A DNA stretch of 64,000 nucleotides. Source: Candidatus Stramentimicrobium fermentans (GTDB taxonomy: Bacteria > Atribacterota > Phoenicimicrobiia > Phoenicimicrobiales > Stramentimicrobiaceae). Positions 5,031 to 56,227 of the stretch are shown piece after piece. The position numbers and the translations under genes are program-made. Every line of letters starts with the position of its first letter. Position 1 is the stretch's first letter. The DNA lies in assembly GCA_012520575.1 (NCBI GenBank), contig JAAYOB010000005.1, positions 10,171-74,170 on the forward strand, in the 5' to 3' direction. The notes beneath the pieces are model-generated. The model did not search any database, had not been told where the DNA came from, and saw only the letters and a program-made list of their open reading frames with translations.

Positions 5031-5042
5031 GAGCATAAAGAA

Positions 5043-12608: not shown

Positions 12609-12626
12609 CAATACAATACCTACATG

Positions 12627-12657: not shown

Positions 12658-12849
12658 TTGTGGACAATAGGATGAAAAAGCATATCCTTAATGGAAGGTA
12701 CAAGTTAACAAAAATATTTCCAAATAAGAGAGGATATGTTTAGAGAACAGTATATATAAGAAAAGGACTTTTGCGCAGAAAAAAGTGAAATCTGGTCACA
12801 ATTAGAGCAGCTGGATATAGTAAGGAGTCCGTATGATGCTGCAATAGGC

Positions 12850-23114: not shown

Positions 23115-23178
23115 TGATTTTAAATGAACTTAGCTTCCAAAAATTTCTTTTTTTAAAAATATTTAAATGAGGTTTAGA

Positions 23179-29772: not shown

Positions 29773-29796
29773 AATTTCTATTTCTGTATATTTATT

Positions 29797-40345: not shown

Positions 40346-42073
40346 ATGACGCGCTCCCTAAAAGAAAAAGGAATAACCGGTGAATTTTTACTAAATTTAT
40401 TGGTCAGTAAAAAAATTATCACCAGCAAAGAGGCTGAAGAGATTTGCCGTAAACAAGGAGAAAACGGTTTACCCGTACAGAGAATAGTCCTGGATTCGGG
40501 CATTCTAAACAAAATAGAGATGATGCAATTACTCTCCTGCGAAATTGGTATTCCGTATTTAGATTTAGAGGGCAGGACCTTTGACCCTTCTATATTGGCA
40601 CTGGTCTCTGAAGAGCTTTCCCGTAAACATAATCTGGCTACCATCGATAAAAAGAACGGCAAACTTGTGGTAGCTATGGCTAACCCTTTAGATGTCTTCG
40701 CACATGATGAGATTAGAATCCTGACCGGCTTTGATGTGGAACCCTATTTGGCTTGCAGAGAGGATATCAACAAGGTTTTAGATTCAGTCTATGGAATTAC
40801 CGAAAGTTGGCAGCAGATGATAGGGGAGATATCGTCGCTTCCCATAGCGGCGGTAGAAGATGAAGTCGAAGATATGGAGATTACCAAAGGTATTTCAGAA
40901 AGTCACGAAGCCCCTGTTATTGCCCTGGTGAACCTTATTTTGCTTCGTGCCATTAAGGAAAGTGCCAGTGATATCCACATAGAACCGTTCGGCGATAAAT
41001 CATTAAGGGTGAGATATCGCATTGACGGAATACTGCACGATATTATGTCTCCTCCCCGCAGTTTGCATATGGCAATTATTTCGCGTGTAAAAATTATGTC
41101 CCACCTCAATATAGCCGAGAGACGTCTGCCGCAGGATGGCCGAATCAAAGTACAGGTACATGGCCGTGAAATCAATTTTCGGGTGTCCACCATTCCTGCT
41201 GTAAACGGAGAGAGTGCGGTATTAAGAATATTAGACCCGGCTCAAATCAGATTAGATTTAAAGACACTCGGCTTTTCCAAAGATAATTTTATTAAATTCC
41301 AAGAACTCATTACCAGGCCAAATGGTATTATTCTGGTTACCGGTCCTACCGGCAGCGGCAAGTCTACCACTTTATATGCCGTTTTAAATACCTTGAATTC
41401 TCTTGAAAAAAAGATAATGACCATAGAAGATCCGGTAGAATACCGCTTAGACGGGATAAATCAATTACAGGCAAAACCAAAAATAGGTTTGACATTTGCT
41501 GCCGGTTTGCGTAGTTTTCTGCGTCAGGACCCCGATATAATGTTAGTGGGAGAGATACGGGATAAAGAAACTGCTGAGATTGCTATTCAATCGGCGCTGA
41601 CCGGGCATTTAGTTTTAAGCACCCTGCATACCAATGATGCTCCCAGTTCTGTTATCAGATTGGTGGATATGGGCATTGAACCGTTTTTGATATCTTCTTC
41701 TGTGATAGGGATACTGGCACAGCGCCTGGTGCGTAAAATTTGCTCTTATTGTAAAAAAGAAGTGCCCATAACCAATGAAATAAAGAATATTTTAGGAGAA
41801 TGCCATTCAGATTCAGAGAATATTAAAATATTCCATGGTGAAGGATGCAGCCATTGTAAAAATACCGGATATAAAGGAAGAACTGCCATTTTTGAATTTA
41901 TGATAGTGAATGATTGTATTCGAGAATTAATCTATAGGAATGCCCCTCTTTCTGAAATTAGGGAGGCTGCCATTAAAGTAAATGGCATGCTTACTTTAAA
42001 AGAAGATGGTTTACAGAAAGTTATAGAAGGATTAACTACAATGGAAGAAGTAATGCGCGCCGCTTCCGCCTGA
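40346..42073 (+). CDS. pilB: GspE/PilB-family assembly ATPase, second paralogue (degenerate N-terminal motif)
   Basis: Walker A GPTGSGKST, LVGEIRD, TLHTND, CSYC...CSHC zinc module. First gene of the contiguous pilus locus, followed by pilC. Confidence 0.85.
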   Translation: MTRSLKEKGITGEFLLNLLVSKKIITSKEAEEICRKQGENGLPVQRIVLDSGILNKIEMMQLLSCEIGIPYLDLEGRTFDPSILALVSEELSRKHNLATIDKKNGKLVVAMANPLDVFAHDEIRILTGFDVEPYLACREDINKVLDSVYGITESWQQMIGEISSLPIAAVEDEVEDMEITKGISESHEAPVIALVNLILLRAIKESASDIHIEPFGDKSLRVRYRIDGILHDIMSPPRSLHMAIISRVKIMSHLNIAERRLPQDGRIKVQVHGREINFRVSTIPAVNGESAVLRILDPAQIRLDLKTLGFSKDNFIKFQELITRPNGIILVTGPTGSGKSTTLYAVLNTLNSLEKKIMTIEDPVEYRLDGINQLQAKPKIGLTFAAGLRSFLRQDPDIMLVGEIRDKETAEIAIQSALTGHLVLSTLHTNDAPSSVIRLVDMGIEPFLISSSVIGILAQRLVRKICSYCKKEVPITNEIKNILGECHSDSENIKIFHGEGCSHCKNTGYKGRTAIFEFMIVNDCIRELIYRNAPLSEIREAAIKVNGMLTLKEDGLQKVIEGLTTMEEVMRAASA

Positions 42074-42389: not shown

Positions 42390-43598
42390 ATGCCATCATA
42401 TTCTTTTAAAGCTCGGGACAGTTCCGGGCGGCTTTTGTCCGGCAGTATGGAAGCAAACAGCCGGGAAGCAGCTATCGAACGGCTGCATGAAATGAGATAT
42501 TTCATTGTTTCCGTGGAAGAAAAACGCAAAAGTTTGCTCTCTACCGAAATAACCATTTTCAAAACTATCACAATTCGGGATTTGGCCATCTTCTTCCGCC
42601 AATTTGCTACCATGGTTAAAGCCGGCTTATCACTGATTAGCTGTCTGGATATATTATCAAAACAGACTGAAAATAAGCTGTTGGCTAAAAAAGTAGATGA
42701 TATCAAAAAAAGTGTGGAAGGCGGTTCCACACTTGCCGAAGCCTTTGGCAACCACCCGGAAACTTTTTCTAAATTATATCTGAATATGATTAAAGCCGGA
42801 GAGGTCGGCGGAGTGCTCGATGATGTTCTGAATAGGATGGCTACCTTAATGGAAAAGGAATATGAGCTGCGGCAGAAAATAAAATCTGCTATGACTTATC
42901 CTTTATTTATCTTCGGTGCTGCGATGATAATGGCAGTATTCATGCTGACCTTTATCTTACCCCAATTTGTGGGAGTATTCCAATCCTTTGGGGGAGAGCT
43001 TCCTTTTCTGACTAAAATATTAGTATTTGTCACAATGGTTTTTAACCGTTTCTGGTATATTTTCCTGGCAGCTTTTGTTCTCCTTGTTTTTGCCTACATC
43101 GGTTATAGCCGTACCCAACATGGGCATAGAAATATTGACCGCATAAAATTAAAATTACCGATTTTCGGTAATCTGTTCCTTAAAACATCCATCACTCGTT
43201 TTGCCAGGACTCTGGGCACTTTAATCCAAAACGGTGTTCCCATTATTCAATCTTTGAAAATTTCCGCCGAATCTATCGGCAACGATATCCTTGCTGAAGC
43301 GGTAATGGAAGCATCTGACCGCATCAAAGAAGGTCAGAGCATCTCCGCACCGCTGGAAGAAAGCAAAGTATTTCCGCCCATGGTAACTCAGATGATATTA
43401 GTAGGGGAGGAGAGCGGAGGGTTAGAAACAATGCTCTTCAATGTTGCTAACTTTTATGATCAGGAAGTGGAAAGGGCCATAGAGCAGCTGACTTCTGTAA
43501 TTGAACCGATGATGATGATAGTGGTAGCCCTGGTAGTGGGTGTAATGGTTATCGCTATGTATCTGCCTATTTTCAGTATGGTGCAGCTGATACAATAA
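42390..43598 (+). CDS. pilC: Type IV pilus platform protein PilC (GspF family)
   Basis: 402 aa with two GspF repeats (GLSLISCLDIL..., GVPIIQSLKIS...) and three TM segments. Confidence 0.9.
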   Translation: MPSYSFKARDSSGRLLSGSMEANSREAAIERLHEMRYFIVSVEEKRKSLLSTEITIFKTITIRDLAIFFRQFATMVKAGLSLISCLDILSKQTENKLLAKKVDDIKKSVEGGSTLAEAFGNHPETFSKLYLNMIKAGEVGGVLDDVLNRMATLMEKEYELRQKIKSAMTYPLFIFGAAMIMAVFMLTFILPQFVGVFQSFGGELPFLTKILVFVTMVFNRFWYIFLAAFVLLVFAYIGYSRTQHGHRNIDRIKLKLPIFGNLFLKTSITRFARTLGTLIQNGVPIIQSLKISAESIGNDILAEAVMEASDRIKEGQSISAPLEESKVFPPMVTQMILVGEESGGLETMLFNVANFYDQEVERAIEQLTSVIEPMMMIVVALVVGVMVIAMYLPIFSMVQLIQ

Positions 43599-43624: not shown

Positions 43625-44155
43625 TTGGCGGCAGCAGAAATCGAAAGTAATAATTTCCAACCGAACTGTAACAGCAATAAGATTGAAGAAAATTTAGCTT
43701 TTTTAAAAGAAGTAGTGCAGGAGTTTCAAAATTCCGGAGAGCCGGAAGAAGAACTTATGCAGGTAGGTTATATTGGACTATTAAACGCGGTTAACTTATA
43801 TCAGGAACATCAGCAGGATACTTTCCAACAATATGCCGGTAATTTAATTCGGGGAGAGATTCGTAACCATATCAGAGAAAAGAATAAGAAAGTAGATATA
43901 CCGGATTGGTTATCGGTAATAATAAATAAATTGTTGAATCAGATGCTTACTGCCTATCGGAAACAGTATAATAAATTTCCCAGTTTAGCGGAACTCTCTC
44001 AAATGCTCGAACTTTCACCGGAAATATTAAAAGAGGCCTTAAAGGCACGCAAGGCGGCAGTGGAGGTTTCTATCGACCAGCACAGAAGAAGCACTATTGA
44101 CTTACAGGAGCCTCTTGATATAGTTAAAATCAGAAAAGAAATCAATAAAAGGTAA
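43625..44155 (+). CDS. Truncated sigma-70 family paralogue: regions 2 and 3 only, no region 4
   Basis: VGYIGLLNAVNLYQ...FQQYAGNLIRGEIRNHIRE (regions 2.1-2.4) and VDIPDWL...FPSLAELSQMLELSPEILKEAL (region 3) align with the next ORF, but it ends at 176 aa without the region 4.2 HTH. TTG start after GAGGTG. The stop is 1 nt from the next ATG. Confidence 0.6.
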   Translation: MAAAEIESNNFQPNCNSNKIEENLAFLKEVVQEFQNSGEPEEELMQVGYIGLLNAVNLYQEHQQDTFQQYAGNLIRGEIRNHIREKNKKVDIPDWLSVIINKLLNQMLTAYRKQYNKFPSLAELSQMLELSPEILKEALKARKAAVEVSIDQHRRSTIDLQEPLDIVKIRKEINKR

Positions 44156-44156: not shown

Positions 44157-44870
44157 ATGGAAAGTAACGATAGCATCGATTATTCGAATAGATTCAATGA
44201 TGAAATTGTCAGCAAATATCAGCCCCTGGTCAGGTCAATTGCCAGAAAGTATTATAATTCAGGGGAACAGGTTGAAGATTTAGAGCAGATCGGTTATCTG
44301 GGATTACTTAATGCCCTGCAGCTCTTTAATGAAAAAAAAGGCGTTAAATTCACTACCTATGCCACTTGGCTGATTAACGGGGAAATTCGCCATTATTTAA
44401 GGGATAAGCATGCCGTTGTCAAAATCCCTTCCTGGATCAGACAGCTTAATAGAAAAATCGACCAATATGTTGAAAAATACTATAGTGAACACAAAGAGTT
44501 CCCTTCTATGGAACAGATTGCCGATGTATTGAATATAACGGAAGAAGGTGTTCAGGAAATTTTAAAAGGCAGGAAATCAGTGCAGGTGGTTTCTTTAGAT
44601 AAAAGTATCAGGGAGGATGATATTGACGCTATCCCTTTGATAGAAAACATAAAAAGCAAAGAATACCGTTCTTTCCAATTACCCATAGAAGATACCATAC
44701 ATTTAAAGAATACCATAAGTAAGCTTAAAAAGATTCACAGGCAGGTAATTTATTACCTGTTCTATATGGACTTAAGCCAGACCAGGGTTGCTAAAATGTT
44801 AGGAATAACGCAAAGGCAGGTATCTCGTATCAAAATGGAAGCTTTAGAAGAATTGCGAAAAAATATTTAA
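44157..44870 (+). CDS. Group 3 sigma factor, SigB/SigF/SigG-like
   Basis: IGYLGLLNALQLFN...KFTTYATWLINGEIRHYLRDK (region 2, GEI-R-x-LRD signature), region 3 HTH FPSMEQIADVLNITEEGV, region 4.2 LSQTRVAKMLGITQRQVSRIKMEAL. Confidence 0.8.
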   Translation: MESNDSIDYSNRFNDEIVSKYQPLVRSIARKYYNSGEQVEDLEQIGYLGLLNALQLFNEKKGVKFTTYATWLINGEIRHYLRDKHAVVKIPSWIRQLNRKIDQYVEKYYSEHKEFPSMEQIADVLNITEEGVQEILKGRKSVQVVSLDKSIREDDIDAIPLIENIKSKEYRSFQLPIEDTIHLKNTISKLKKIHRQVIYYLFYMDLSQTRVAKMLGITQRQVSRIKMEALEELRKNI

Positions 44871-44899: not shown

Positions 44900-45361
44900 A
44901 TGTTGGGAAAAAAGATAGTAGCCAGATATAAAGACGGGAGCATTCAGAAAGGGTATACCAGCAATTTCAATCCGGACAAAGATTTTTTTCACCTTTCTTT
45001 GATTGATGAAGCAACTGAATTACCTACCGGAGAGATTGTTGAGGTCAATGTCAGTATTCTCAAGGCGGTCTTTTTTGTCAAGTCTTTTAAAGGGGACAAG
45101 GAATATATCAAAGTCAGAACCTTCGATAAATCCCCTGCAGGTCCTCCCAGTCAGCGCAGGATTATATTGATCTTTAAAGATGGAGAAAATTTTTACGGCA
45201 GCACGCTCAGTTATTCCCCCAGGCGCAGCGGTTTTTTTGTTTTCCCCATTGATAATCAGGACAATAGTGAGAGCGTCTTTGTGCCCCAGGGTGCTCTGGA
45301 AAAAGTGCATATTAAAAAATTCGGCAGTGAAGAGTTTGATATCTATCTTTATGAAAACTAA
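44900..45361 (+). CDS. Hypothetical 153-aa protein made of two tandem ~75-aa repeats
   Basis: AAAGGAG RBS. Repeat 1 is IVARYKDGSIQKGYTSNFNPDKDFFHL...VNVSILKAVFFVKSF; repeat 2 is IILIFKDGENFYGSTLSYSPRRSGFFVFP...VFVPQGALEKVHIKKF. No family recognised. Confidence 0.5.
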   Translation: MLGKKIVARYKDGSIQKGYTSNFNPDKDFFHLSLIDEATELPTGEIVEVNVSILKAVFFVKSFKGDKEYIKVRTFDKSPAGPPSQRRIILIFKDGENFYGSTLSYSPRRSGFFVFPIDNQDNSESVFVPQGALEKVHIKKFGSEEFDIYLYEN

Positions 45362-45452: not shown

Positions 45453-45575
45453 ATCTTTTTTCCTGCCATTACCAATAACGAAACGCCGTGGCAAGCTCAT
45501 ACTCTGTTCCCCGACTCCTTGCCTTTTCGCTAAAACTTTTTTCCGCGCTTATTCCGCAATTTTTATCTGAAAATA
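45453..45575 (+). repeat. Intergenic repeat family, copy 4 (upstream of pilin 1)
   Basis: TCTTTTTTCCTGCCATTACC...CTCATACTCTGTT...TTTTATCTGAAAA parallels copy 2 CTCTTTCTCCGGTCATTACC...CTCATATTCTGTT...TTTAGTCTGAAGG. Confidence 0.5.
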
Positions 45576-45616
45576 TTTCCTGTTTTAGGTCTAAAATTCT
45601 GAAAATAGGGAATAAT
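45569..45616 (+). promoter_or_regulatory. SigB-like promoter motif P1 with upstream GAAA-N3-TTTC palindrome (pilin 1)
   Basis: GAAAATATTTC (45569-79), 9 nt, GTCTAA (45589-94), 13 nt, GGGAAT (45608-13), then AATATAATATAG. Same architecture as P2 and P3. Confidence 0.55.
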
Positions 45617-45685
45617 ATAATATAGAAGTAAAAACCATAAATCATCATAAAAACAATAAAGTATTCAGACTTTTAGCAAAGCAAT

Positions 45686-46159
45686 ATGAGAAATATAACT
45701 GTTAAAAAAGAAGATAAAACCGAAAATAAGGTGGGGTTCACCTTAATAGAATTGATGGTTGTTGTTGCCATAATAGGCATACTCTCTTTATTTGGATTGA
45801 GAGTCTATGCCGGTTTTCAGTACAAAGCCAAAGATGCCCTGTTAAAAGGTAATGTTTCTACCATTCATACCCATATACAAACGGAATTGTCAGACGATAA
45901 GAAGAGCGCCACGGAAGTCTGGACCAATATAGACGACATATTCCTTGCCTCCGGCATCTATTTTCCGGCAGCAGGCAATCCCCAGCAGGGCAATATTGAG
46001 GGGATATCGACAGCCGAGCCGGCATCATTAACCGGTTTAGGCGGAAAGGTCTTTGTCTTTGTAGACAGCACTGCCGCTCCTACCAGGTTTTATGTCAATG
46101 GCGTTAATGCGGAGGAGACCGGTTTTGTCTTCCCGGAATCCTTAATTGCCCAAAAATAA
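45686..46159 (+). CDS. Type IV pilin (prepilin-type N-terminal cleavage/methylation domain), paralogue 1
   Basis: Class III signal ...NKVG|FTLIELMVVVAIIGIL with Glu5. 157 aa. No obvious SD sequence. Confidence 0.85.
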   Translation: MRNITVKKEDKTENKVGFTLIELMVVVAIIGILSLFGLRVYAGFQYKAKDALLKGNVSTIHTHIQTELSDDKKSATEVWTNIDDIFLASGIYFPAAGNPQQGNIEGISTAEPASLTGLGGKVFVFVDSTAAPTRFYVNGVNAEETGFVFPESLIAQK

Positions 46160-46167
46160 AAATATTT

Positions 46168-46215
46168 GAAAATATTTCTATCTTTATGTCTAAAAAAGAT
46201 ATTATGTGGAATAAC
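46168..46215 (+). promoter_or_regulatory. SigB-like promoter motif P2 (pilin 2)
   Basis: GAAAATATTTC (46168-78), 9 nt, GTCTAA (46188-93), 13 nt, TGGAAT (46207-12), then AACATATAATAG. Confidence 0.55.
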
Positions 46216-46290
46216 ATATAATAGATACCTTAAAAGAGGAAAGAAGTACGGAAAACTATATTTATAATAAAAAAGGAGAATTTTAAAAAA

Positions 46291-46719
46291 ATGTTCATGT
46301 ACTTACACAAAAACAAAAAAGGTTTTACCTTAATCGAACTGATGGTCGTAGTTGCCATTATCGGCATCCTGGCGCTGCTGGGCTTGCGTCTCTACGCCGG
46401 GCAGCAGGAAAAAGCCAAGAATGCCATTGTTAAAGCCAATGCCGGTACCATACAAACCCTGATTCAGGCCGAATTAGCTGACGCTGCTGTTGCCGACATT
46501 GATTTAGACGAAATTTTTGGTGCCGCTGGTATATACAATCCTTATACAGGTGAGGCTCAAACAGTAAGCGGTAGCGATGAAGGAGAGGTTGGGGCTAGTT
46601 TAGGTGCATACGTTAATGACGCTAGCGGTGCAGGTGCAGAAGATAACGTTTTCTATATAAATGGTTATGGTTCTGATGGAGATTTTGTATATGGCAGAGA
46701 TTTAGAAGCGCGAAAATAA
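46291..46719 (+). CDS. Type IV pilin, paralogue 2 (likely major pilin)
   Basis: Short leader MFMYLHKNKKG|FTLIELMVVVAIIGIL, strong AAAGGAG RBS, G/A/D-rich C-terminal half, strong terminator downstream. Confidence 0.88.
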   Translation: MFMYLHKNKKGFTLIELMVVVAIIGILALLGLRLYAGQQEKAKNAIVKANAGTIQTLIQAELADAAVADIDLDEIFGAAGIYNPYTGEAQTVSGSDEGEVGASLGAYVNDASGAGAEDNVFYINGYGSDGDFVYGRDLEARK

Positions 46720-46777
46720 GCTAATTAGCTGTCAACCATCAGCCGGGGGACGTTCTCCGGCAAAGAATTTTTCAATC

Positions 46778-46812
46778 AAGAGCCAGTCTTTTAAGACTGG
46801 CTCTTCTTCTTT
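46778..46812 (+). terminator. Rho-independent terminator after pilin 2
   Basis: AAGAGCCAGTCTT / AAGACTGGCTCTT 13-bp stem, followed by a CTTCTTTT pyrimidine tract. Confidence 0.75.
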
Positions 46813-46825
46813 TCCTGCCTTTCCC

Positions 46826-46900
46826 GGCACTCTTCTTTCTTCCGTCACCGCGATGCGGCATTATTGCCTGTAATTAGCTCTAACCGAAGACAGAAAGTCA
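46826..46900 (+). repeat. Intergenic repeat family, partial copy 5
   Basis: CTTCTTTCTTCCGTCACCGCGATGCGGCATT...TAACCGAAGAC resembles the CTCTTTCTCCGGTCATTACC...TAACCGATAAAC blocks. Weaker match. Confidence 0.35.
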
Positions 46901-47009
46901 ACAAAAGTATTTCTATGGTCTATGCTTTCGCTCCCATATGTTTTTATTGTCTTTTTCAATCCGTAATGCTATTATCTTAATAGATTAAACGGTTTAGGAG
47001 GGGATAAGA

Positions 47010-47408
47010 ATGAGAATAAACAATCAGAAGGGCATTACCGTTCTTTCCTTGCTCATACTGGTGCTTATTGTCGGAGGGGGAATTCTCTATGGGCCCAAAC
47101 TTTTTAACCATGTGATCGACCGGAATATAAAAAGATTGGTTACGGCCAATGCCAAATCCGTAGAGACGGAGATACGCTCCGAATTAATCAATAGACATCC
47201 CATTCAAATCTGGAATGATATGGATAAACTCATCAATGCTTTGAATTTTCAAAACCCGGTGCTTTCGGAAAGGCAGACTAAAAATGGCTGGGACCGCCCG
47301 GGTGATGTGGTAGTCTCCTTTGACGGTATCAATACTTTCCGCCTGGACGGCATAGGGCGCGACGGTTCTTCCTTCGGCCTCAATATCATAATACAAAGAT
47401 CAAAATAA
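47010..47408 (+). CDS. Pilin-like protein with degenerate class III signal (no Phe1/Glu5)
   Basis: NQKG|ITVLSLLILVLIVGG hydrophobic N-terminus. Downstream NAKSVETEIRSEL parallels NVSTIHTHIQTEL / NAGTIQTLIQAEL of the two pilins. GGAGGGG RBS. Confidence 0.55.
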   Translation: MRINNQKGITVLSLLILVLIVGGGILYGPKLFNHVIDRNIKRLVTANAKSVETEIRSELINRHPIQIWNDMDKLINALNFQNPVLSERQTKNGWDRPGDVVVSFDGINTFRLDGIGRDGSSFGLNIIIQRSK

Positions 47409-47442
47409 AACAAAAAGGATAGTTATCTAATCAGATAACATA

Positions 47443-48216
47443 ATGGTACAAATGACACAAATATTTACTACAATCATTATATTCATTATCGGTCTGGTAA
47501 TCGGCAGCTTCAGCAATGTCTGCATTTACCGCCTACCCCGCAACGAATCAATCGTATTTCCCGGTTCCCATTGTCCCCGGTGCAGCTATCCCATTGAATG
47601 GCACGACAATATCCCGCTCATCAGCTATATCATCTTAAAGGGGAAATGCCGTTCCTGCGCTGAAAAAATATCCCTGCAATACCCTTTGGTAGAGTTTTTA
47701 ACCGCCTCACTTTATCTGTTTTTATTCTATTTCTATGGATTGCAATTACGCACCGTTGTTTATATGGTATTCTGTTCCGCTTTAGTAATAATCGCTTTCA
47801 TCGATTTGAAAGAAAAGATTATTCCCGATGTTATCTCTCTTCCCTTAACCGCCCTCGGCTTTCTATCGAGTTTTGTCTTAAAAAACATCTCACCTTTAAA
47901 CTCTCTGCTCGGCATTCTGGCGGGAGGGGGAAGCTTGTATTTAATAGCTATAGCCGGCACCTATATATTCAGGAAAGAAGCCATGGGCGGAGGGGATATC
48001 AAATTATCCGCCATGGTCGGTGCTTTTTTAGGATGGCAGCTCGCCCTGCTTTCGCTCTTTATAGGATTCTTGCTGGGCTCTGTAATCGGTATAATTGTTC
48101 TGATGAAAACGAAAGGAGAAATCAGGGATGTTCCCTTTGGACCATTCATTGCCTTAGGTACCCTGATTGCTCTCTTCTTTGGTCAAGGCATACTCGATTG
48201 GTATTTTCTGCTTTGA
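47443..48216 (+). CDS. pilD: Prepilin peptidase (A24 family) PilD
   Basis: N-terminal CPRC...CRSC zinc module, polytopic membrane protein, catalytic-Asp block GGGDIKL. Confidence 0.9.
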   Translation: MVQMTQIFTTIIIFIIGLVIGSFSNVCIYRLPRNESIVFPGSHCPRCSYPIEWHDNIPLISYIILKGKCRSCAEKISLQYPLVEFLTASLYLFLFYFYGLQLRTVVYMVFCSALVIIAFIDLKEKIIPDVISLPLTALGFLSSFVLKNISPLNSLLGILAGGGSLYLIAIAGTYIFRKEAMGGGDIKLSAMVGAFLGWQLALLSLFIGFLLGSVIGIIVLMKTKGEIRDVPFGPFIALGTLIALFFGQGILDWYFLL

Positions 48217-48452
48217 CTTGTTTTCTTAGCTCCATTTAAACAAAATGTAAAGAAAATCTTCTAACAAATCAATATCAATGTATCAGATCAGCTTAAATGA
48301 AAACCAAATTCGGCACGGCATAATTTAGAAGCAGAAGAATTTCTTAAGATAGAATAAAAAGTATCTCATAATCTAATAAGAGCAATTCACTATTTTAAAA
48401 CCTTCCTAATATTAAAAAAAATTATTTCCAATCATTATATTGTATCTGTTTT

Positions 48453-48487
48453 GTCTAAAATTTGTTATAATATGGAATAATATATAG
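48453..48487 (+). promoter_or_regulatory. SigB-like promoter motif P3 (minor-pilin operon)
   Basis: CTGTTTT-GTCTAA (48453-58), 14 nt, TGGAAT (48473-78), then AATATATAGTG. Spacer is 1 nt longer than in P1 and P2. About 40 nt upstream of the fimT/gspH-like gene. Confidence 0.5.
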
Positions 48488-48525: not shown

Positions 48526-49008
48526 ATGAAATACCATTATGAAAGGTGTAATAGCGCTAAATCGAACCGCGGATTTACCCTGATTGAATTAATGGTTGTA
48601 GTCGGAATAATTGCGGTGCTGTTAACAGTTACAGGAAGGGCTCTTTTTATCGTAAAACAGAACCACGACCTGAACATTACGGCTCGTCAAATAGAGGCAG
48701 CTCTGAAAGATTGTCAGGCCAGTGCTTTTTATAGCGGAAGCTGGTATAAGGTTTACTTCTGGCCATCTATAAACCGATACCGGGTTTATCGGGGAGCGGG
48801 TGAAGTGGTGAAGGATGTCCAGTTGGAAAACATAAAACTGCACCACACCAATTTTATAGACCACAGAGTTGACTTTTATAGTACCGGTATACCCAGTATG
48901 GGCGGTACTGTAACTTTAAAAAATAAAAACGGGAAGACATTATATGTTATCATGACACCGGTGACCGCCAGGACGAGAGTAAGCACAGAACCGCCGGATA
49001 ATTGGTAG
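48526..49008 (+). CDS. Minor pilin, GspH/FimT-like
   Basis: SNRG|FTLIELMVVVGIIAVLL. C-terminal ...STGIPSMGGTVTLKNKNGKTLYVIMTPVTARTRV is typical of the GspH/FimT fold. Confidence 0.75.
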   Translation: MKYHYERCNSAKSNRGFTLIELMVVVGIIAVLLTVTGRALFIVKQNHDLNITARQIEAALKDCQASAFYSGSWYKVYFWPSINRYRVYRGAGEVVKDVQLENIKLHHTNFIDHRVDFYSTGIPSMGGTVTLKNKNGKTLYVIMTPVTARTRVSTEPPDNW

Positions 49009-49138
49009 CTTTATATTATTTTGCGGGAGAGAAATGCAGGAGTTTTCGGTTTACAGTTCTCAACCGTCTGTCTGTATTTTATTTAACTGAAAGAATTAAA
49101 AAATTGATTAATTAACTAACTACCGGGAGGTATTCCCA

Positions 49139-51535
49139 ATGCTAAGAATAAAAAGAATATTAACCCAAAGTCCCAAGGGTATGACCTTAATTGAACTGAT
49201 GATAGCAGTCTTCATTTTGGCTTTAGTTGCAATGGGGCTATTTCGGGGATTTACCGTCGCCTTTCAAGCTATGGCAGATGCTAAAGACCGTACCATGGCC
49301 ACCAACTATGCCCAGCAAATATTGGAGAGTTATAAAAACACCCCTTTTGAAAAAATTCTGCCTTCTTCCGGCTCTATAGAAGGGACTAAATTCTTTAAAA
49401 ATGTAAGTGTTAATCAAATCGATGAAAGTTTGAAAAAGGTTATTACTAGAATCTCTTGGGCAGATAGGAATAGTGATGATGCTGATAAAAGAGTAGTGGT
49501 AGAAACTTCCATTGCTGATACCCGGGTAACTGCTCAGGAAAATGCAACTCCGGCGGGAATTATTATTTATGCCAGTTCCTATAATTTATTGCCGGGGAAC
49601 GATCCTGAAAACCGCGACAGGCCATCTCATATTTGGGCAAAAATTGTAGACGAGCATGGTAATTTGATTATCGATTGGGATGAAGAGAAGGTATTATTTA
49701 CGATTGAATCAGAAGTCGGACTAGATAATGAGCCGGTGTATGATACACTTGGCGGCTTTACTCCGGCATATTTTAATGAATTATTATCAGATATAAGAGA
49801 CGGTGTGGCAGAAACAGATTTTTATCAATATCAAGCTGAAGAAAGGCAAGGTTATGTTACTATTAAAGCCAGTTTAACTGTAGGAGCCGAAGAATTATAC
49901 GATACCTTAAGGCTGAAAATTACCAATGAAGCTGTTGCTGTTGTCTTGTCTTCTGAAGGTAATAAGCATATTATCAGTACAGAAGGCGGAGAAGAAGGAA
50001 TAGCGCATCTGATTGCTAAAATCGTAGATGCCGCCGGGGATATAGTCACTACTGAAAATAGACCGGTTACTTTTGAAATAATTTCCGGACCGGAAACATC
50101 AAGTCTGATAAACATGATACCTACTGAAAACGGTATAGCCAAAATAGATTTAAAAGCCGGTTCCCTGACCGGCAGTAACACGGTATTGGCAATGCTCATT
50201 CCCCTGGAACCGGGAAGCATCACTATTCAGGTTGTTGACCCCGGAATTCATAATTTTAAAATTGTAGCTCCTGCCCCTAATACAAAAATTGCCCAACTGG
50301 GCTCTGTTGAAATAGTTGCCCGGCTGACAGATTATTTAGGCGAACCTATATCCGGTAATATAATTAACTTTGCAATTGAAGACGGTTCGCATTTGGGAAG
50401 TATATCTCGAAGTAGCGATACAACAGGGGAAGCCGGTAATGCAACTACCGAGTTAACTATGAATTATGCAGGCACGGCAACTATCAAGGCCTATTGGATT
50501 GATGAAGAAAATAATGAGATTTATGATACTATTCAAATTGTCTGCGGAAATCATTGGTTATATGTTGAAGCTGACCCTTTGAACGTCTATGAAGGCCATT
50601 CATCAACTATCAGGGCAGCGCTGACCAACGTATTTGGTGCCCCTGTGCCTTCTCAATATATCAATTTCAGTGTTAAAGAGGGAGATGCCACATTATCTCC
50701 GCTCAGTGCTTTGACCGATGAGGAGGGAATTGCAACTGTCACACTTACTGCGAATGAGCCCGGGGACATTATTGTCAGGGCAGAATGGCAAGAAGACCTG
50801 CAAAACGTTTTTGGGGAGGTTGAGGTATCGTGCATAAATGCCCCGATTTATCAGGTACAGCTCAGTGCCCCAAAGACTACAATTTCTGCGGGTGAATCAT
50901 TAGAGCTTACTGCTGCCGTAACCGAAAATGGCAATCCTGTTAATGGTATCACCGTAACTTTTACCGTTTCCGGCTCTGCTGATGCCAAACTTGATAACCA
51001 AGCACCCTCAATAAGTAAAGATACTGATGAAGATGGAATTGCAACTGTTACTTTAAGCGGATTGAATCCTGGTGAATCGGCTACGATAACTGCAGAAGCA
51101 GGAGATAGCAGTGATAGTATCACAATCAGCTGCGAAGTACCGGAAATAGCAATTAGGCTGAATCCCGCTTACAATCCAAGACTTCAAGGTAATAAACAAG
51201 TTTATTTTGGTATAATTGTAGAAAATGATGACATTAATCTAAATAAAATGAAAATATCATGGAGTCCGGCGTCAAATGAAGGATTAAAAGAAGTGTGGAT
51301 TGACGATACGCAGGTTTATTTAAGTGGTATATCTGGAGGCTCTGCAAATGGAACCGAGATCAGTTTCAATGTAGCTCCATATTCATACCAATTAGAAAAA
51401 GATAGAAGTTACGTAATTAAAATGGTTTTTATAGTAAATGGTAATATGAAAAAGAAACATTGGAACATAGAATTTTTTAATCCGGAAAACAATGCACCCA
51501 TTGTTCCGGCGATTGAGTTTTATTTAAAAGGATAA
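49139..51535 (+). CDS. Large modular minor pilin: PilV-like prepilin N-terminus fused to about five Ig-like (Big_1/invasin-type) repeats and a C-terminal domain
   Basis: SPKG|MTLIELMIAVFILALVAMGLF, then repeats ending ...EEGIATVTLTANEPGDIIVRAEW and ...EDGIATVTLSGLNPGESATITAEAG. 798 aa. Confidence 0.75.
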   Translation: MLRIKRILTQSPKGMTLIELMIAVFILALVAMGLFRGFTVAFQAMADAKDRTMATNYAQQILESYKNTPFEKILPSSGSIEGTKFFKNVSVNQIDESLKKVITRISWADRNSDDADKRVVVETSIADTRVTAQENATPAGIIIYASSYNLLPGNDPENRDRPSHIWAKIVDEHGNLIIDWDEEKVLFTIESEVGLDNEPVYDTLGGFTPAYFNELLSDIRDGVAETDFYQYQAEERQGYVTIKASLTVGAEELYDTLRLKITNEAVAVVLSSEGNKHIISTEGGEEGIAHLIAKIVDAAGDIVTTENRPVTFEIISGPETSSLINMIPTENGIAKIDLKAGSLTGSNTVLAMLIPLEPGSITIQVVDPGIHNFKIVAPAPNTKIAQLGSVEIVARLTDYLGEPISGNIINFAIEDGSHLGSISRSSDTTGEAGNATTELTMNYAGTATIKAYWIDEENNEIYDTIQIVCGNHWLYVEADPLNVYEGHSSTIRAALTNVFGAPVPSQYINFSVKEGDATLSPLSALTDEEGIATVTLTANEPGDIIVRAEWQEDLQNVFGEVEVSCINAPIYQVQLSAPKTTISAGESLELTAAVTENGNPVNGITVTFTVSGSADAKLDNQAPSISKDTDEDGIATVTLSGLNPGESATITAEAGDSSDSITISCEVPEIAIRLNPAYNPRLQGNKQVYFGIIVENDDINLNKMKISWSPASNEGLKEVWIDDTQVYLSGISGGSANGTEISFNVAPYSYQLEKDRSYVIKMVFIVNGNMKKKHWNIEFFNPENNAPIVPAIEFYLKG

Positions 51536-51553
51536 TAACCAGAGGAAAATATT

Positions 51554-52093
51554 TTGAGAATAAAAAATAAAAAATTCAATATAATCAACAATACCCGAGG
51601 TTTCTCCTTAATTGAATTGATGGTAGTAGTGGCGATACTGGGTTTCATAATCATTGGATTGGTTACATTTTTTAGCGGGGGCACTCGTTCCTGGATAATA
51701 GGGCAGTCTCAATTAAAGGCGCAGAGAGAAGCCCGTTTAGCATTAGACCGTATGGCAAAAGAGATAAGAGAAGGAGATAGCTTTGATAACAGTTCAGGCG
51801 ATAATAAATTGATTGTTAAATTTGACGTTCTTGGTAAATCTGATTTAACATATAACTGGTCCGGAAATCACGGTGATAGTTTAACACGTAATACCGGACC
51901 TTTTCTGGATAATGTGCATGATATAACTTTTGTTTATTTAAATCAGTCAGGCATTATTATGACTAACCCTGTAAATGCTTCTAAAGTATTAATAAATTTA
52001 CAGATAGATGTAGATGGTGATGCTCAAAAGGGTGGAAACCCTGATATAATATTGGAAACAGAAATTAGTTTACGAAATTTCGATTATAAATAA
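51554..52093 (+). CDS. Minor pilin, PilW/GspJ-like
   Basis: NTRG|FSLIELMVVVAILGFIIIGL...AQREARLALDRMAKEIREG. TTG start. Confidence 0.7.
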   Translation: MRIKNKKFNIINNTRGFSLIELMVVVAILGFIIIGLVTFFSGGTRSWIIGQSQLKAQREARLALDRMAKEIREGDSFDNSSGDNKLIVKFDVLGKSDLTYNWSGNHGDSLTRNTGPFLDNVHDITFVYLNQSGIIMTNPVNASKVLINLQIDVDGDAQKGGNPDIILETEISLRNFDYK

Positions 52094-52255
52094 AGATTAA
52101 TGTTAGTAGATTGCTTGTGTAATATTATTAAAAAATAAGATAAAATAGATATATTTAAAGTTTCATCTATATTTACACAAATATAATAGATATTTGAATT
52201 ATCGCAATATTAAGTTAATTATTTTTAATAGAAAATCATATTTTTTTGAGAGAAG

Positions 52256-53614
52256 GTGACAGATATGATAAATATATTTAAACCTGTCAAGGTTAATAAA
52301 AATGACCATATTCTAAAATCGCAAAAAGGAGCTGCTCTACTGACGGTGATTATTTTCACGGTGGTTCTGGTCAGTTTCGTTATTGCCATACTAAAAATGG
52401 CTGGAAATGACACTCAATTATCTGCCATGCAGCGAGATTCTACAAAGGCATTCTATTTAGCCGAGGCCGGGATTGAAGAAACCATCTGGAAATTAAATAC
52501 AGGCGACATTTCCTTAGATGACCTTAATTGGGGTGAAGAGCTATTACTGCTGCATGAAGGAAATCCCGATGAATATTATGATGTAACTATAAGAGCTTAT
52601 CCCGAAGATGATCCGCGGCGTGGAGCAGGCGATAATCCAAAAGACTGGATTGCCATTGAGTCTCAAGGGGTAATTGCCAGCAACAGAATGGATGCGGATG
52701 GAGAAAGAATTGCGGCGGGGAAAAGGACTGTAGCTGTTGATGCTCATTTCGCCCTTACTCAACATACCACTACTATTTACGACAAAGCAATCCTTACCCA
52801 ACACATGATCACTTTTCAGGGAAACCCCGGGGCTGAAATTATCGGAGGAGACATTCATTCTAATTATGGAATAGATGTTAAAGGACCTTTTACTTTTGAT
52901 GGGATTGCCACTACCTCCGGAGTGCCTGATGGTTGGCCTGATACATCTTACAGTTCTTTAAATGACCTTGATAACACACCTAATGGAGATTTTTCAGGCC
53001 CGGAGAATTGGCAGCCAATGGATATTCCCGCTGTCCCCTATGATGATTTAAAAGCAATGGCTATCGCTAATGGTACTTATTTTGCAAATGGTTATGATTC
53101 GAAAAACTATAGTAGAGGAGAACAAACGTTTACCGGTATTGTTTATGTAGAAGGGGATGTTATCTTCAGAAACGGTGATTCCCTCATTATTACTGATGGG
53201 GCTCTTATTGTCGGTAAAAATAATCCTGATAATCCCAATGATTCTTCAGGTACCGTGGAATTTAAAAATGGTTCTAATTTAACAATACAAAGGAGCGACC
53301 CAATCCCGGAAGGAGCTTATCCGGGACCGCTTGGACTTGCTGCAATGGGAAATATTCTGCTGCATGCCAGTTCTTCCGCTGTCAATGGTGTAGTGCAGTC
53401 AGGCGGCTATTATGACGCTGACGGAAATCTAATGCCGGGAGGGATGGTTGATTTTCGGAATAATTCAAGGGTAGTAGGGGCAGTAGTGGCAGAAGAGGTA
53501 TGGATGCATAATAATACTACCATTGAATATGATGGAGAATATATGGAAAATTTCCAGCATGTTACCACTATTGGCAATGAGAAATTTGTAAAGGTATCCT
53601 GGCGGGAAATATAA
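52256..53614 (+). CDS. PilX-like minor pilin/pilus-tip protein with large C-terminal domain
   Basis: QKGAALLTVIIFTVVLVSFVIAIL...STKAFYLAEAGIEE matches the PilX_N/GspK-type N-terminus (no Glu5). The ~330-aa C-terminal region has beta-strand-rich G/N/D repeats. ATG 52265 is an alternative start. Confidence 0.6.
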   Translation: MTDMINIFKPVKVNKNDHILKSQKGAALLTVIIFTVVLVSFVIAILKMAGNDTQLSAMQRDSTKAFYLAEAGIEETIWKLNTGDISLDDLNWGEELLLLHEGNPDEYYDVTIRAYPEDDPRRGAGDNPKDWIAIESQGVIASNRMDADGERIAAGKRTVAVDAHFALTQHTTTIYDKAILTQHMITFQGNPGAEIIGGDIHSNYGIDVKGPFTFDGIATTSGVPDGWPDTSYSSLNDLDNTPNGDFSGPENWQPMDIPAVPYDDLKAMAIANGTYFANGYDSKNYSRGEQTFTGIVYVEGDVIFRNGDSLIITDGALIVGKNNPDNPNDSSGTVEFKNGSNLTIQRSDPIPEGAYPGPLGLAAMGNILLHASSSAVNGVVQSGGYYDADGNLMPGGMVDFRNNSRVVGAVVAEEVWMHNNTTIEYDGEYMENFQHVTTIGNEKFVKVSWREI

Positions 53615-53819: not shown

Positions 53820-55028
53820 ATGCTTGCTATTGATTTTGGTGCATATTCCATTAAGGCGGTAAAGATAGAGAGGAATAGGAGCGGTTATTATTTATCCAAC
53901 TTCGGCATAGTATTAACTCCCCCGGGCAGCATTGTCCATGGCGAAATAAAAGATGTCGATTCGGTTAGCCAGGCCTTAGGTAAGATGTTGCAGAAAAAAG
54001 GAATATCGGATAGAAACTGCATAATCGCTCTCACCGGACAAAAAGTAATTGTACGGGAAATCACCTCCCCGTTTATGACCGAAAAAGAACTGAAAGAAGG
54101 AATACGGTGGGAAGCCCCTAAGTATGTCCCCTATGATTTGGAAGACTCATTATTGGATGCTAAAATAATTGAGGAATTAGAAGAAAAAGACGGTTCCCGC
54201 ATGATTAAGATATTACTGGTCGCCTCTCCCAAAAATCTGTTGGAACAGCAGATTGCAGTTTTGAAAAAACTGAAATTGCAGCCCCGGGTAGCAGATATAG
54301 TTGCTAATGCTCAAATGAGAGCTTTTGAAAGTTATCTTGTGCCGAGCTCCGGTCTGAACGAAGAGGGCACCCTGATAGATATAATTCTGTCTATCGGTGC
54401 CAGTACCACAGAGATTACTTTAGTAGAAGGGGATAGATTAAAGTTCACCAGGACTATTCTTAAAGGCGGGGATGACATTAACCGATTGATTGAAAATAAG
54501 TTAAACGTTCCCTTTCCGGAAGCCGAACTGCTTAAACGGCAGGTCGGTCTTGGCTTGGATGAAGAAGATCCTGTGCCTGACCCGGAAAAAAATAGCAAAG
54601 AAAAAATAACCGAAATTAATGGTATGATAGAACCGTCAATTACTTCAGAACAGGCAGACAAAGAGCCGATTCACATAAAAGCAAATACCGCAGAAGATGA
54701 AAAAGAAGCCCCCCTACCCAATGAAGAAAAAATCGCTGAATTGGTAAATTCAGGTGTTACTGAAATATTCAATGAAATTCGTAAATCCTTAAATTATTTT
54801 AAGACCCAATATCAGAAAGTAAATTATCAGAGAATCATCCTATGCGGCGGCATGACTCGATTATCCAACCTGGGGCAAATGCTTAAAAAGCAATTTGGAA
54901 TTACTGTTGTAATAGCTAATCCATTAAAAGATGTCGTGGTAAATGAAAGTATAAGCAATGTGGAAGCCCTTGAGGAACAAAAATCTGCCTTAGCTACGGC
55001 AGTTGGATTGGCAAAAAGAGAAAGGTAA
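53820..55028 (+). CDS. pilM: Type IV pilus assembly protein PilM (actin-like ATPase fold)
   Basis: MLAIDFGAYSIKAV N-terminus, SIGASTTEITL, ILCGGMTRL. Followed by pilN/O. Confidence 0.85.
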   Translation: MLAIDFGAYSIKAVKIERNRSGYYLSNFGIVLTPPGSIVHGEIKDVDSVSQALGKMLQKKGISDRNCIIALTGQKVIVREITSPFMTEKELKEGIRWEAPKYVPYDLEDSLLDAKIIEELEEKDGSRMIKILLVASPKNLLEQQIAVLKKLKLQPRVADIVANAQMRAFESYLVPSSGLNEEGTLIDIILSIGASTTEITLVEGDRLKFTRTILKGGDDINRLIENKLNVPFPEAELLKRQVGLGLDEEDPVPDPEKNSKEKITEINGMIEPSITSEQADKEPIHIKANTAEDEKEAPLPNEEKIAELVNSGVTEIFNEIRKSLNYFKTQYQKVNYQRIILCGGMTRLSNLGQMLKKQFGITVVIANPLKDVVVNESISNVEALEEQKSALATAVGLAKRER

Positions 55029-55039
55029 AAAACAAGGGA

Positions 55040-55657
55040 ATGGCTAAAAATAAGTATACTGACAGAGATATTAATCTGCTGCCGGAGGAATACCGGGAAA
55101 AAGAAAAGTACAATTTTCCAAGATTGTTTTTCACTGTCTTCATAATTCTGCTTTTGGCTGCCTCAGCTTATTTGTATGTTTCTCTTGAGAATAAAATATT
55201 TGCTCGGGAAAATCAAATAGCAAATTTAGAAATTCAGTTAGAGAGCATTGAAAAGATTATACAGGAAGTTAAAAACTTAGAAAAAGACCGGGAGCTATTG
55301 GCTGACCGAGTCAAAGTTGTTGAAAGTTTAATTACTACTCAATCTCGCCTCACCCGTGTGTTAGGCGATTTTGGCGGTACTATTCTGCCCGAAGTATGGC
55401 TGAACAACCTGAGTCTTAGCTCCAATAACACTTTTAGCTTTACCGCTGATACCTTTAATAATTATCTTATCGCACAATATATGAATACCTTAAAAGATAG
55501 TGAACGTTTTGATGCTATAGAATTACAATATATACGCAAGCAAAATACTAAAATACCTGAACTCGATAAAAATATAGAAACCGTAAATTTTCAATTATCG
55601 GGAGTTTTTATACCCTACCGTCCCGATTATGAAGGCAAAATCCAAGAGAACAAATAG
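55040..55657 (+). CDS. pilN: Type IV pilus assembly protein PilN
   Basis: INLLPEEY motif, single TM, coiled coil. Confidence 0.85.
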   Translation: MAKNKYTDRDINLLPEEYREKEKYNFPRLFFTVFIILLLAASAYLYVSLENKIFARENQIANLEIQLESIEKIIQEVKNLEKDRELLADRVKVVESLITTQSRLTRVLGDFGGTILPEVWLNNLSLSSNNTFSFTADTFNNYLIAQYMNTLKDSERFDAIELQYIRKQNTKIPELDKNIETVNFQLSGVFIPYRPDYEGKIQENK

Positions 55658-55669
55658 AGGTGGACTCTT

Positions 55670-56227
55670 TTGAAATTACCTAAATTGAGCAAAAGAGCTA
55701 AAATTGTGCTTTCTTTTATTTTATTTGTCGTCTTCCTTTATTTTATTTACTTTTTCATCTATGTACCAAGGAATACTAAGATAGAGGAATTAGATAACAA
55801 AATAAGCAGCCTTCGGAGTAAAATTGATGATGGCAGAAGAATCGCTGCCCGTTTAGATGTTTTACGGAAAGAATACCAGGAATTAACTGAAAAGATGGAA
55901 TTTATGGAAGTCCTCTTACCTAAAGAAAAAGATATCCCGGAATTTTTAGTTATGCTGCAAGAGACCATGGATGAATTCAATATAGACTTTACTAATTTTT
56001 CTCCGCAAAACTTATTGGTAGATAGAGATTCTATCTATGCTCAATTACCGATTCGGCTTACCTTTACCGCCGACTATTTTGAAACTATAAGATTCTTAGA
56101 TAGGCTGGAGAACTTTCCCAGAATTGTCGATGTCAGGGATTTAAAACTGAATCCGGTCGGCGAAAACTTGGAAAATGTTAATGTAGATATGTCCATGTTT
56201 ACTTATGTTTTAGTGAAAGGAAATTAG
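55670..56227 (+). CDS. pilO: Type IV pilus assembly protein PilO
   Basis: TM plus coiled coil, then LLPKEKDIPEFLVMLQE...IRLTFTADYFETIRFLDRLENFPRIV, typical PilO. Confidence 0.8.
   Translation: MKLPKLSKRAKIVLSFILFVVFLYFIYFFIYVPRNTKIEELDNKISSLRSKIDDGRRIAARLDVLRKEYQELTEKMEFMEVLLPKEKDIPEFLVMLQETMDEFNIDFTNFSPQNLLVDRDSIYAQLPIRLTFTADYFETIRFLDRLENFPRIVDVRDLKLNPVGENLENVNVDMSMFTYVLVKGN

Follow-up and report, generated by a model that had tools for sequence, protein, structure and literature searches.

Putative σB-like promoters of pilin genes in the Atribacterota, with a locus-encoded sigma factor as their most likely reader

Alternative sigma factors in filament systems

In cyanobacteria, SigF, a sigma factor of group 3, drives the pilin genes pilA1/pilA, as described for Synechocystis, Nostoc and Synechococcus elongatus (PMC2532724, PMC6495340, PMC11345509), and it is established there that a sigma factor of this group can drive a pilin gene. 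A comparable arrangement is suggested by a type IV pilus locus of Candidatus Stramentimicrobium fermentans, a member of the phylum Atribacterota. The locus lies in a stretch of 64,000 nucleotides (nt) of contig JAAYOB010000005.1 (assembly GCA_012520575.1, positions 10,171 to 74,170 of the forward strand), which is called the window here and is numbered from its first letter. It carries a sigma factor gene, here named sigP, between pilC and the pilin genes, and a shared motif (GTCTAA, then GGAAT after a short spacer) stands before three pilin or minor-pilin genes. The three sites are probably Atribacterota-specific promoters of the σB/σF type (group 3) for filament subunit genes, with sigP as their most likely reader. 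A preliminary description of this DNA had set such control apart from the familiar sigma-54/PilSR or sigma-A control; as a claim of novelty, this gives way to the cyanobacterial precedent (PMC2532724, PMC6495340).

The σB of Bacillus, Staphylococcus and Listeria is alike in its regions 2, 3 and 4, in a spacer of 13-14 base pairs (bp), in a -10 box that is rich in G and has A at -11, and in the residues that read -35G, -34T, -32T and -14G. Unlike σB, the locus has GTCTAA in place of GTTTAA, its sigma factors have Arg or Lys for Met at the -33 contact, and sigP scores below the SigBFG cut-off. Also unlike σB, the locus has no RsbW/RsbV module, pilins and surface proteins take the place of general stress genes as predicted targets, and the phylum, which is of the uncultivated type, has an outer membrane, as the secretin gene indicates. 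The likeness to cyanobacterial SigF lies in the proposed use of a group 3 sigma factor for pilin genes, in the SigF -12 box (GGTAA), which resembles GGAATAA and the GGTAAT of one relative (L013), and in a SigF regulon that includes surface and secreted functions. We infer a requirement for sigP in transcription of the major pilin gene from the motif that stands before all of the pilin genes examined. SigF has a different -32 box, TAGGC, and it autoregulates; the sigma genes of the present locus have no motif in front of them. To our knowledge, the cyanobacterial sigF gene is not in a pilus gene cluster.

Three other systems share part of the arrangement. FliA (σ28), whose promoter consensus is TAAA-N15-GCCGATAA, belongs to the same broad group, and its flagellin circuit likewise has a sigma gene that sits with the machinery genes and turns on the filament subunits. 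Unlike FliA, sigP is not a member of the FliA/WhiG family, would use another promoter, and has no identified FlgM-like anti-sigma factor. In Clostridioides difficile, the pilA1 gene lies behind a riboswitch for c-di-GMP (cyclic diguanosine monophosphate), as do pilin genes of relatives of the organism studied here; theirs, however, are of class I, often in tandem and paired with an alternative-sigma promoter, and the locus in the window has no riboswitch. The pilA genes of Pseudomonas, Myxococcus and Geobacter, under σ54 and PilS-PilR, also use an alternative sigma factor for the major pilin, but σ54 belongs to another family, its promoter is of the -24/-12 kind, and it works with an ATP-dependent activator; none of these is present here.

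Promoter sites ahead of the pilin genes

The motif GTCTAAAA-N10-13-GGAATAA is matched exactly three times in the window, at 45589-45615, 46188-46214 and 48453-48480, each time on the + strand, and 100 dinucleotide-preserving shuffles of the window gave a mean of 0.00 matches. A relaxed pattern, GTCTAA-N12-16-GGAAT, found the identical three sites against 0.19 expected, and a scan allowing three mismatches added only three weak and unconvincing matches, at 2181, 27504 and 34561 (the last on the - strand). The sites are named P1, P2 and P3, and each is 65-75 nt upstream of its gene: P1 of pilin 1 (45686), P2 of pilin 2 (46291), P3 of the first minor pilin (48526). With 0.00 matches expected, three that share the gene strand and all precede pilin genes argue against chance. 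All 55 open reading frames (ORFs) of at least 80 amino acids (aa) in the window are on the + strand. The three sites had been recognized in the preliminary description and turn out to be the only ones in the 64 kilobases (kb), but the prefix CTGTTTT, which was said to be common to all of them, is found at P1 and P3 only.

The contacts of σB have been defined from the Staphylococcus aureus open complex, with promoters of the form GTTTWW, about 14 bp, GGGWAW (PMC11156646). GTCTAA agrees with the -35 box GTTTWW at five of six positions, the -10 hexamer of P2 and P3 (TGGAAT) agrees with GGGWAW at five of six, and the family consensus GGGAAT agrees at all six. With its spacer inside the 12-15 bp range, GTCTAA-N13/14-GGGAAT has the form of a σB promoter at the level of sequence, and the nearness to the SigB consensus that had been claimed is borne out. 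If GGGWAW lies at -15 to -10, as in the σB open complex (PMC11156646), transcription is predicted to start at about 45623 (+/-2) from P1, 46222 from P2 and 48488 from P3. The bases past GGGAATAAT are also conserved (ATAAATAGA; for example, window 45617-45627) and include TAG(A/G) at the predicted start. This conservation may come from a preference at the start site or in the discriminator, or from a σA -10 box that overlaps the site.

The same boxes recur in relatives. A footprint set of 32 Atribacterota sequences (31 related loci and the window), picked by sigma homology and not by the motif, contains 27 gene-strand matches to GT[CT]TAA-N11-16-GGAAT versus two on the opposite strand. The 25 sites with GTCTAA and GGAATA are intergenic in the pilin region, nearly all of them directly before a pilin gene, and the third -35 position is C in every one although the pattern allowed T. 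When the sites are aligned, the consensus is T-GTCTAAAA-N11/12-GGGAATAAT-ATAAATAGA, in which the flanks (T at -1, AA, GGG, AAT) are kept and the spacers vary. A motif or one-base variant lies upstream of all 18 pilin genes in the footprint loci, the variants being AGGTAAT in L013 and GTCTAT in L022. These two loci had been candidates for motif-free loci until the variants were revealed by reading the sequences. In the JS1-like clade, the minor-pilin operon is mostly without the motif, which precedes the large Big_1 pilin gene instead. As judged from sequence, a genuine phylum-wide promoter class with σB/σF architecture is supported.

The riboswitches of relatives bear on where transcription starts. 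A metagenome scan seeded with GTCTAAAA-N11,12-GGGAATAAT gave at least 132 sites on at least 120 contigs. Rfam places c-di-GMP-I aptamers (RF01051/RF03167, 39-86 bits) in relatives' leaders after the motif, and a profile built from these aptamers found at least 116 of them in about 80 loci (listed metagenome contigs and genome loci), often in tandem. The first aptamer begins 32-61 nt past GGAATA in at least about 75 cases. A leader riboswitch must be transcribed, so the starts should lie in the short interval after the motif, where a -15 to -10 box predicts them. The pairing is strong and not exclusive, as a few aptamers follow σA-type TGnTATAAT promoters or the motif variant TGCTAAAA. In the window itself, no c-di-GMP-I aptamer above the Rfam gathering threshold was found: Rfam gave only 6S RNA and transfer RNA (tRNA), and the aptamer profile gave nothing with nhmmer.

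P1 and P2 also share the 12-mer TGAAAATATTTC, which has exactly two copies in the window (Table 1), and GAAAATATTTC begins 20 nt ahead of GTCTAA at both. An identical palindrome at this distance had been reported, and that much stands; its reading as an activator or repressor site does not, as the 12-mer is absent from the promoters of the nearest clade and the A/T tract is a common one. An operator, though possible, is unsupported. The sequence AAAATATTT has 28 copies in the window, and AAAATATTT(C/T) occurs at the distance of an UP element in P1, P2 and many JS1-type pilin promoters, such tracts being common in this AT-rich DNA. Many clades have an A-run and then a T-run about 10-20 nt ahead of GTCTAA, with the exact 12-mer not kept. 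The UP element, a site for the C-terminal domain of the RNA polymerase alpha subunit, is an A/T tract at about -57 to -47 with the consensus AAAWWTWTTTT. By its position (about -56 to -46) and its sequence, the upstream GAAAATATTTC resembles the distal UP half, and the preferred reading is an A/T tract that is UP-element-like.

The candidate reader and its rivals

The sigP product has Pfam regions 2 (1e-19), 3 (1e-8) and 4 (1e-13) and no region 1.1, the arrangement of SigB/F/G sigma factors. Its signatures GEIRHYLRD (region 2) and ITQRQVSR (region 4.2 helix), which correspond to the family patterns GEI(K/Q/R)R(F/Y)LRD and (I/L)(S/T)Q..VSR, are invariant or nearly so among 19 homologs. Among solved structures, Geobacillus stearothermophilus σF (1L0O) and σB of S. 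aureus in its open complex (8X6G) are closest. A full-length group 3 sigma factor with a GEI-R-x-LRD signature had indeed been described between pilC and the pilins, and SigB/F/G is its best family. Even so, it scores 194.4 bits against TIGR02980 (SigBFG; cut-off 234.35), 163.4 against the cyanobacterial SigF family NF005644 (cut-off 261) and 116.3 against FliA/WhiG TIGR02479 (cut-off 189.6), and the motif differs from the FliA consensus in both boxes. Beneath the curated cut-offs of all three, sigP is a separate subfamily that would be σB-like at the DNA level and SigF/FliA-like at the circuit level. Homologs with 55-94% identity occur in metagenome-assembled genomes of the Atribacterota (OP9/JS1), where the sigma gene directly follows pilC in all 28 loci with upstream sequence and is followed by DUF6982 and then the pilins. 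The preliminary description had proposed a comparison of orthologous loci, and in it both the sigma gene (28 of 28) and the motif or its one-base variant (18 of 18 pilin genes) accompany the pilus genes.

The residues of sigP were mapped by ungapped alignment to S. aureus σB (8X6G), which assumes that the σB geometry holds for sigP. Three contacts are conserved: R241 with -35G (R224 in sigP), Q236 with the A opposite -32T (Q219) and R100 with -14G (R82). S235, at -34T, is replaced conservatively by T218, and F86 of the -11A pocket keeps its aromatic character as Y68. The motif departs from GTTTAA only at -33, where it has C and so G on the partner strand. The σB residue that meets the A opposite -33T, M237, is R220 in sigP and is Arg or Lys in all 19 homologs; Arg is a classical guanine reader. 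The change of Met to Arg or Lys at the very contact where the motif has its sole -35 change would tie the locus sigma to the motif. In the same way, the loss of the -15G contact (R110 to S92) fits the weakly kept first G, which is present in 18 of 24 sites. This fit of residue to base would link sigP specifically to the motif.

Several points weigh against this assignment. Two further σB contacts besides R110 are changed in sigP, F79 of the -11A pocket to K61 and R97 at -13G to H79. With no motif in front of pilB or the sigma genes, the locus lacks the autoregulation that alternative sigma factors usually show. In the JS1-like clade, the reader could be either tandem paralog, as both share the SQRQVSR helix. 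Another σB-like sigma factor with the same helix could be encoded elsewhere in the genomes, of which the 64 kb and flanks of up to 10 kb were in view. A weak σA promoter without a -35 box, using the TATAAT of P1 and P2, may overlap the sites. Finally, the metagenome sites came from a scan that was seeded with the motif.

The alternative that a different σB/σF-like sigma factor elsewhere in the genome reads the motif, with the locus sigma serving other targets, draws on the partial genomes in view, on the three or more paralogs that the Atribacterota possess and on the lack of a motif before the locus sigma genes. The only other paralog found (the L072 type), however, makes a poor reader: N-Q..Q replaces Q-R..R, so that the -35G Arg is lost, TEEMHQYLMNK replaces the region 2 signature GEIRHYLRD, and two of the three copies have a truncated region 4.2. 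It was therefore rejected as the reader and is more likely a target. The locus sigma, on the other hand, has the matching residues, including the change of Met to Arg at the -33 contact, and its gene adjoins motif-driven pilin genes in every locus. A reader from elsewhere is thus unlikely, and the product of sigP is preferred.

It could also be argued that these are housekeeping σA promoters working through the downstream TATAAT/TATAAA, with GTCTAAAA and GGGAAT as activator or repressor sites. P1 and P2 do have a perfect TATAAT (45616 and 46217), 2 and 4 nt past GGAAT, the consensus runs on ATATAAAT, and the A/T-rich tract is UP-like. Yet 17 bp before each TATAAT lies unconserved spacer, GTCTAA is 21-23 bp off (in the consensus, about 24 bp), and a TG extension is lacking. 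A σ70/σA promoter would have TTGACA and TATAAT-like boxes 16-18 bp apart at conserved positions, but the conserved elements, GTCTAA and an invariant GG, are spaced 13-14 bp apart in σB geometry, and L013 retains GGTAAT although its downstream A/T run differs. On this evidence, control by σA alone is quite improbable. The σA promoters cited for contrast in the preliminary description are near-consensus (TTGACA-17-TAAAAT at 24290 and TTGCAT-17-TATATT at 29485) and not the exact TTGACA-17-TATAAT that was claimed. That the shared sequence is a relic of a tandem duplication of a pilin gene and its upstream region, with no regulatory meaning, is scarcely credible: pilins 1 and 2 are paralogs with an identical 12-mer ahead of P1 and P2, but many genomes with a divergence of 50-70% have these boxes ahead of genes that are unrelated (lipoproteins, a regulator, a sigma-like gene), and the spacers and flanks are unconserved.

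The locus, its regulon and their meaning

The pilus locus is laid out in Table 1 together with features of relatives. The genes from pilB to the DUF6982 gene are apparently one transcription unit, with gaps of 1-29 nt from pilC onward (26 nt between pilC and sigT) and about 0.3 kb between pilB and pilC. No autoregulatory motif was found before pilB, sigT or sigP in the window or in the pilC-sigma gaps of JS1-type loci. The only recurring match before sigma genes, G(C/T)(C/T)TAAC...GGAAT, occurs in four loci, at a distance of about 100-430 nt from the sigma gene; the gaps there measure 0.5-1.1 kb and are maybe coding. Two relatives (L007 and L052) have a σA-like TTGCCC-17-TATAAT ahead of pilB. 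The 3' end of sigT contains a σA-like TTGACT-16-TATAGT, which was rejected as a promoter, as it is not kept in relatives. Six JS1-type loci (L014, L016, L021, L028, L109 and L143) have a hairpin, GTAGGGGTTCGATTCATCGAACCC, often with GTAGGACAGGCGTCTCGCCTGTCTA, immediately ahead of the first sigma gene's ribosome-binding site. The hairpin recurs in other spacers (L022 2560-2620 and the leader of L144) and may be a repeat of the repetitive extragenic palindrome (REP) kind or a regulatory stem-loop.

Table 1. Coordinates of the pilus locus and related features. Positions without a locus label refer to the window.
Feature	Position	Strand	Remarks
rpoD	9747-10856	+	Housekeeping sigma factor
pilB	40346-42073	+	MshEN domain
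pilC	42390-43598	+	
sigT	43625-44155	+	176 aa; regions 2 and 3 only, no region 4; stop 1 nt before sigP start
sigP	44157-44870	+	237 aa; group 3 sigma, full-length (regions 2, 3 and 4); proposed motif reader
DUF6982 gene	44900-45361	+	153 aa; PF22478, E 5e-25
A/T tract before P1	45568..45579	+	TGAAAATATTTC; about -56 to -45
Putative promoter P1 (pilin 1)	45589..45616	+	GTCTAA 45589-45594, 13-nt spacer, -10-like GGGAATAAT 45608-45616
Pilin 1	45686-46159	+	Class III signal peptide GFTLIEL; N_methyl domain
A/T tract before P2	46167..46178	+	TGAAAATATTTC; 12-mer identical to that of P1
Putative promoter P2 (pilin 2)	46188..46215	+	GTCTAA 46188-46193, 13-nt spacer, TGGAATAAC 46207-46215
Pilin 2	46291-46719	+	N_methyl domain; strong Shine-Dalgarno; probably major pilin
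Intrinsic terminator after pilin 2	46778-46805	+	12-bp stem, then T-run; strong
orf132 and prepilin peptidase pilD	47010-48216	+	σA-like TTGTCT-17-TATTAT (46947-46975) ahead, no motif
Putative promoter P3 (minor-pilin operon)	48453..48481	+	GTCTAA 48453-48458, 14-nt spacer, TGGAATAAT 48473-48481
Minor-pilin operon	48526-53614	+	ComGD/GspH-like pilin, 798-aa Big_1 pilin, further pilin, PilX_N protein
pilM, pilN, pilO	53820-56227	+	
Secretin	56932-58815	+	
c-di-GMP operon, L072 (also L073, L129)	194-6777	-	Behind motif and riboswitch; degenerate sigma-like protein, PAS-GAF-HD-GYP phosphodiesterase, PAS-GAF-GGDEF cyclase, PAS-GAF protein
Aptamer, L072	6821-6912	-	
Aptamers, L016	9446-9540 and 9654-9738		
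Aptamer, L082	5516-5603		
Sigma-GGDEF fusion, Armatimonadota L033	7815-9281		Directly after pilC
Sigma-GGDEF fusion, Armatimonadota L034	7932-9281		Directly after pilC
Sigma-GGDEF fusion, Armatimonadota L035	7878-9260		Directly after pilC
Sigma-GGDEF fusion, Armatimonadota L036	6684-8024		
Sigma-GGDEF fusion, Armatimonadota L057	7893-9221		

In the proposed circuit, expression of the machinery operon would also supply sigP, which would then act at P1, P2 and P3 to turn on the genes of the major and minor pilins, and pilD would run from its own σA-like promoter. The obvious candidates for the restraint of sigP would be the products of sigT and the DUF6982 gene, both of which the preliminary description had overlooked. 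The sigT product keeps regions 2 and 3, which co-read the -10 box in σB, without the -35-reading region 4. It has a Pfam match to region 2 only, aligns with positions 8-143 of 227 in the SigBFG profile and is 34% identical to sigP. Its orthologs in 13 genomes have 174-186 aa, and their stop always abuts or overlaps the sigP start, a constancy of size and position that marks sigT as a real conserved gene and not a pseudogene. In the clade of the window, the first sigma gene is this truncated sigT; the JS1-like clade has two full-length tandem paralogs. The sigT product might be a modulator, competitor or decoy.

The DUF6982 protein is a candidate regulator. Its predicted model, with a predicted local distance difference test (pLDDT) score of 72, is all-beta, with a small barrel in its N-terminal half and weak matches to Sm/LSm/Hfq-like folds (E 0.04-0.2). 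One to three copies of the gene, usually one or two, occur in every related locus whose contig extends past the sigma genes. Some homologs are labelled "snRNP-like" (small nuclear ribonucleoprotein-like) by the Joint Genome Institute (JGI), and most relatives have two paralogs. A PilZ-like or known anti-sigma fold was considered for DUF6982 and set aside, as a sequence search of solved structures gave nothing significant and the fold matches are weak. A partner-switching module can be set aside too, in agreement with the preliminary description: no RsbW/SpoIIAB-type kinase (HATPase_c_2) or STAS domain is found among the 55 ORFs.

In relatives, the predicted regulon is not confined to the pilus, as it also takes in surface lipoproteins and an operon of c-di-GMP enzymes. 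Among the 132 sites listed from the metagenome scan, 49 have a pilin gene downstream (18 of these by way of a riboswitch), 51 have a c-di-GMP-I aptamer and a non-pilin gene, and 32 have neither, about half of these last being without conserved flanks and chance-like. The non-pilin targets among the matches listed are mostly lipoproteins or secreted proteins, such as a beta-helix protein, a DUF4382/CarboxypepD_reg protein and a C39-like peptidase; further targets are small membrane proteins, an XRE regulator and the operon of the third sigma-like paralog. This operon, found in three relatives (Table 1), looks like a c-di-GMP feedback module. The idea of a locus-encoded sigma factor that drives the pilins thus keeps its footing in motif, synteny and residues, as a prediction from sequence, but the word "dedicated" has to be dropped, since non-pilus genes share the promoter in relatives.

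A link between pili, sigma factors and c-di-GMP may reach further than the Atribacterota. In relatives of the window locus, c-di-GMP would act downstream through the riboswitches. Both PilB paralogs of the window have an MshEN domain, which is a c-di-GMP-binding domain. More distant sigma homologs follow pilB-pilC in the Armatimonadota (35-40% identity) and adjoin pilD in the Melainabacteria. No pilin genes or convincing motif were found in the flanks of the Armatimonadota, Abditibacteriota and Melainabacteria homologs, except for three pilin-like N-termini in Abditibacteriota L042 and L045. The Armatimonadota homologs are fusions of 442-488 aa that join a complete sigma factor (regions 2-4) to a C-terminal GGDEF domain with a degenerate GGDEF motif (Pfam E-values 1e-11 to 1e-28 for four of the proteins, L057 left out), and the Abditibacteriota homologs also have long C-terminal extensions. 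One could tentatively imagine a self-contained checkpoint like that of FliA and FlgM, in which sigT and/or DUF6982 hold the sigma factor until assembly status or c-di-GMP releases it, and maybe an old link between type IV pili, sigma factors and c-di-GMP that is shared with the Armatimonadota; this wider proposal is doubtful.

Some other features of the window deserve mention. A 6S RNA gene (29538-29758, 79 bits) is followed by a 5-formyltetrahydrofolate cyclo-ligase gene (29761-30402), with the near-consensus σA promoter at 29485; ssrS-ygfA is the classic pairing of 6S RNA with a cyclo-ligase gene. The second PilB-type ATPase, with its MshEN domain, is encoded at 32563-34284, directly after an S1 protein gene, and a PilT-like ATPase at 23167-24225; the main pilus locus lies about 16 kb downstream of the latter. 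An ORF-poor 1.1 kb (12608-13699) contains, at 12900-13060, short frame-broken fragments that are similar to an IS256-type transposase at its C-terminal end; the stretch is probably an insertion sequence in decay. A PKD-domain protein (58951-59781) lies just past the secretin gene, and 60536-61693 encodes a protein of the baeRF (bacterial archaeo-eukaryotic release-factor-like) families.

The Atribacterota abound in anaerobic digesters and in sediments of the subsurface, and their gene regulation is almost unstudied. In the literature searched, no account was found of an Atribacterota pilus sigma factor or riboswitch. Against that literature, five elements are new: a sigma gene that is fixed in the pilus cluster across a whole phylum; a defined promoter whose -35 box is distinct and is matched by a change of residue; the lack of a partner-switching module; a region-4-less paralog conserved beside the sigma factor; and the systematic pairing of the promoter with c-di-GMP-I riboswitches. 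With the motif, the Atribacterota would have a defined class of alternative-sigma promoters for the first time, and its consensus could be used for the annotation of regulons in uncultured genomes. It comes with a candidate reader and a prediction of specificity at the level of the residue, Arg220 paired with -33C, and with two candidate sigma regulators. The regulon would unite pili, surface proteins and c-di-GMP riboswitches, and the rule known from cyanobacteria, by which the pilin gene is driven by a sigma factor of group 3, would be extended to other phyla.

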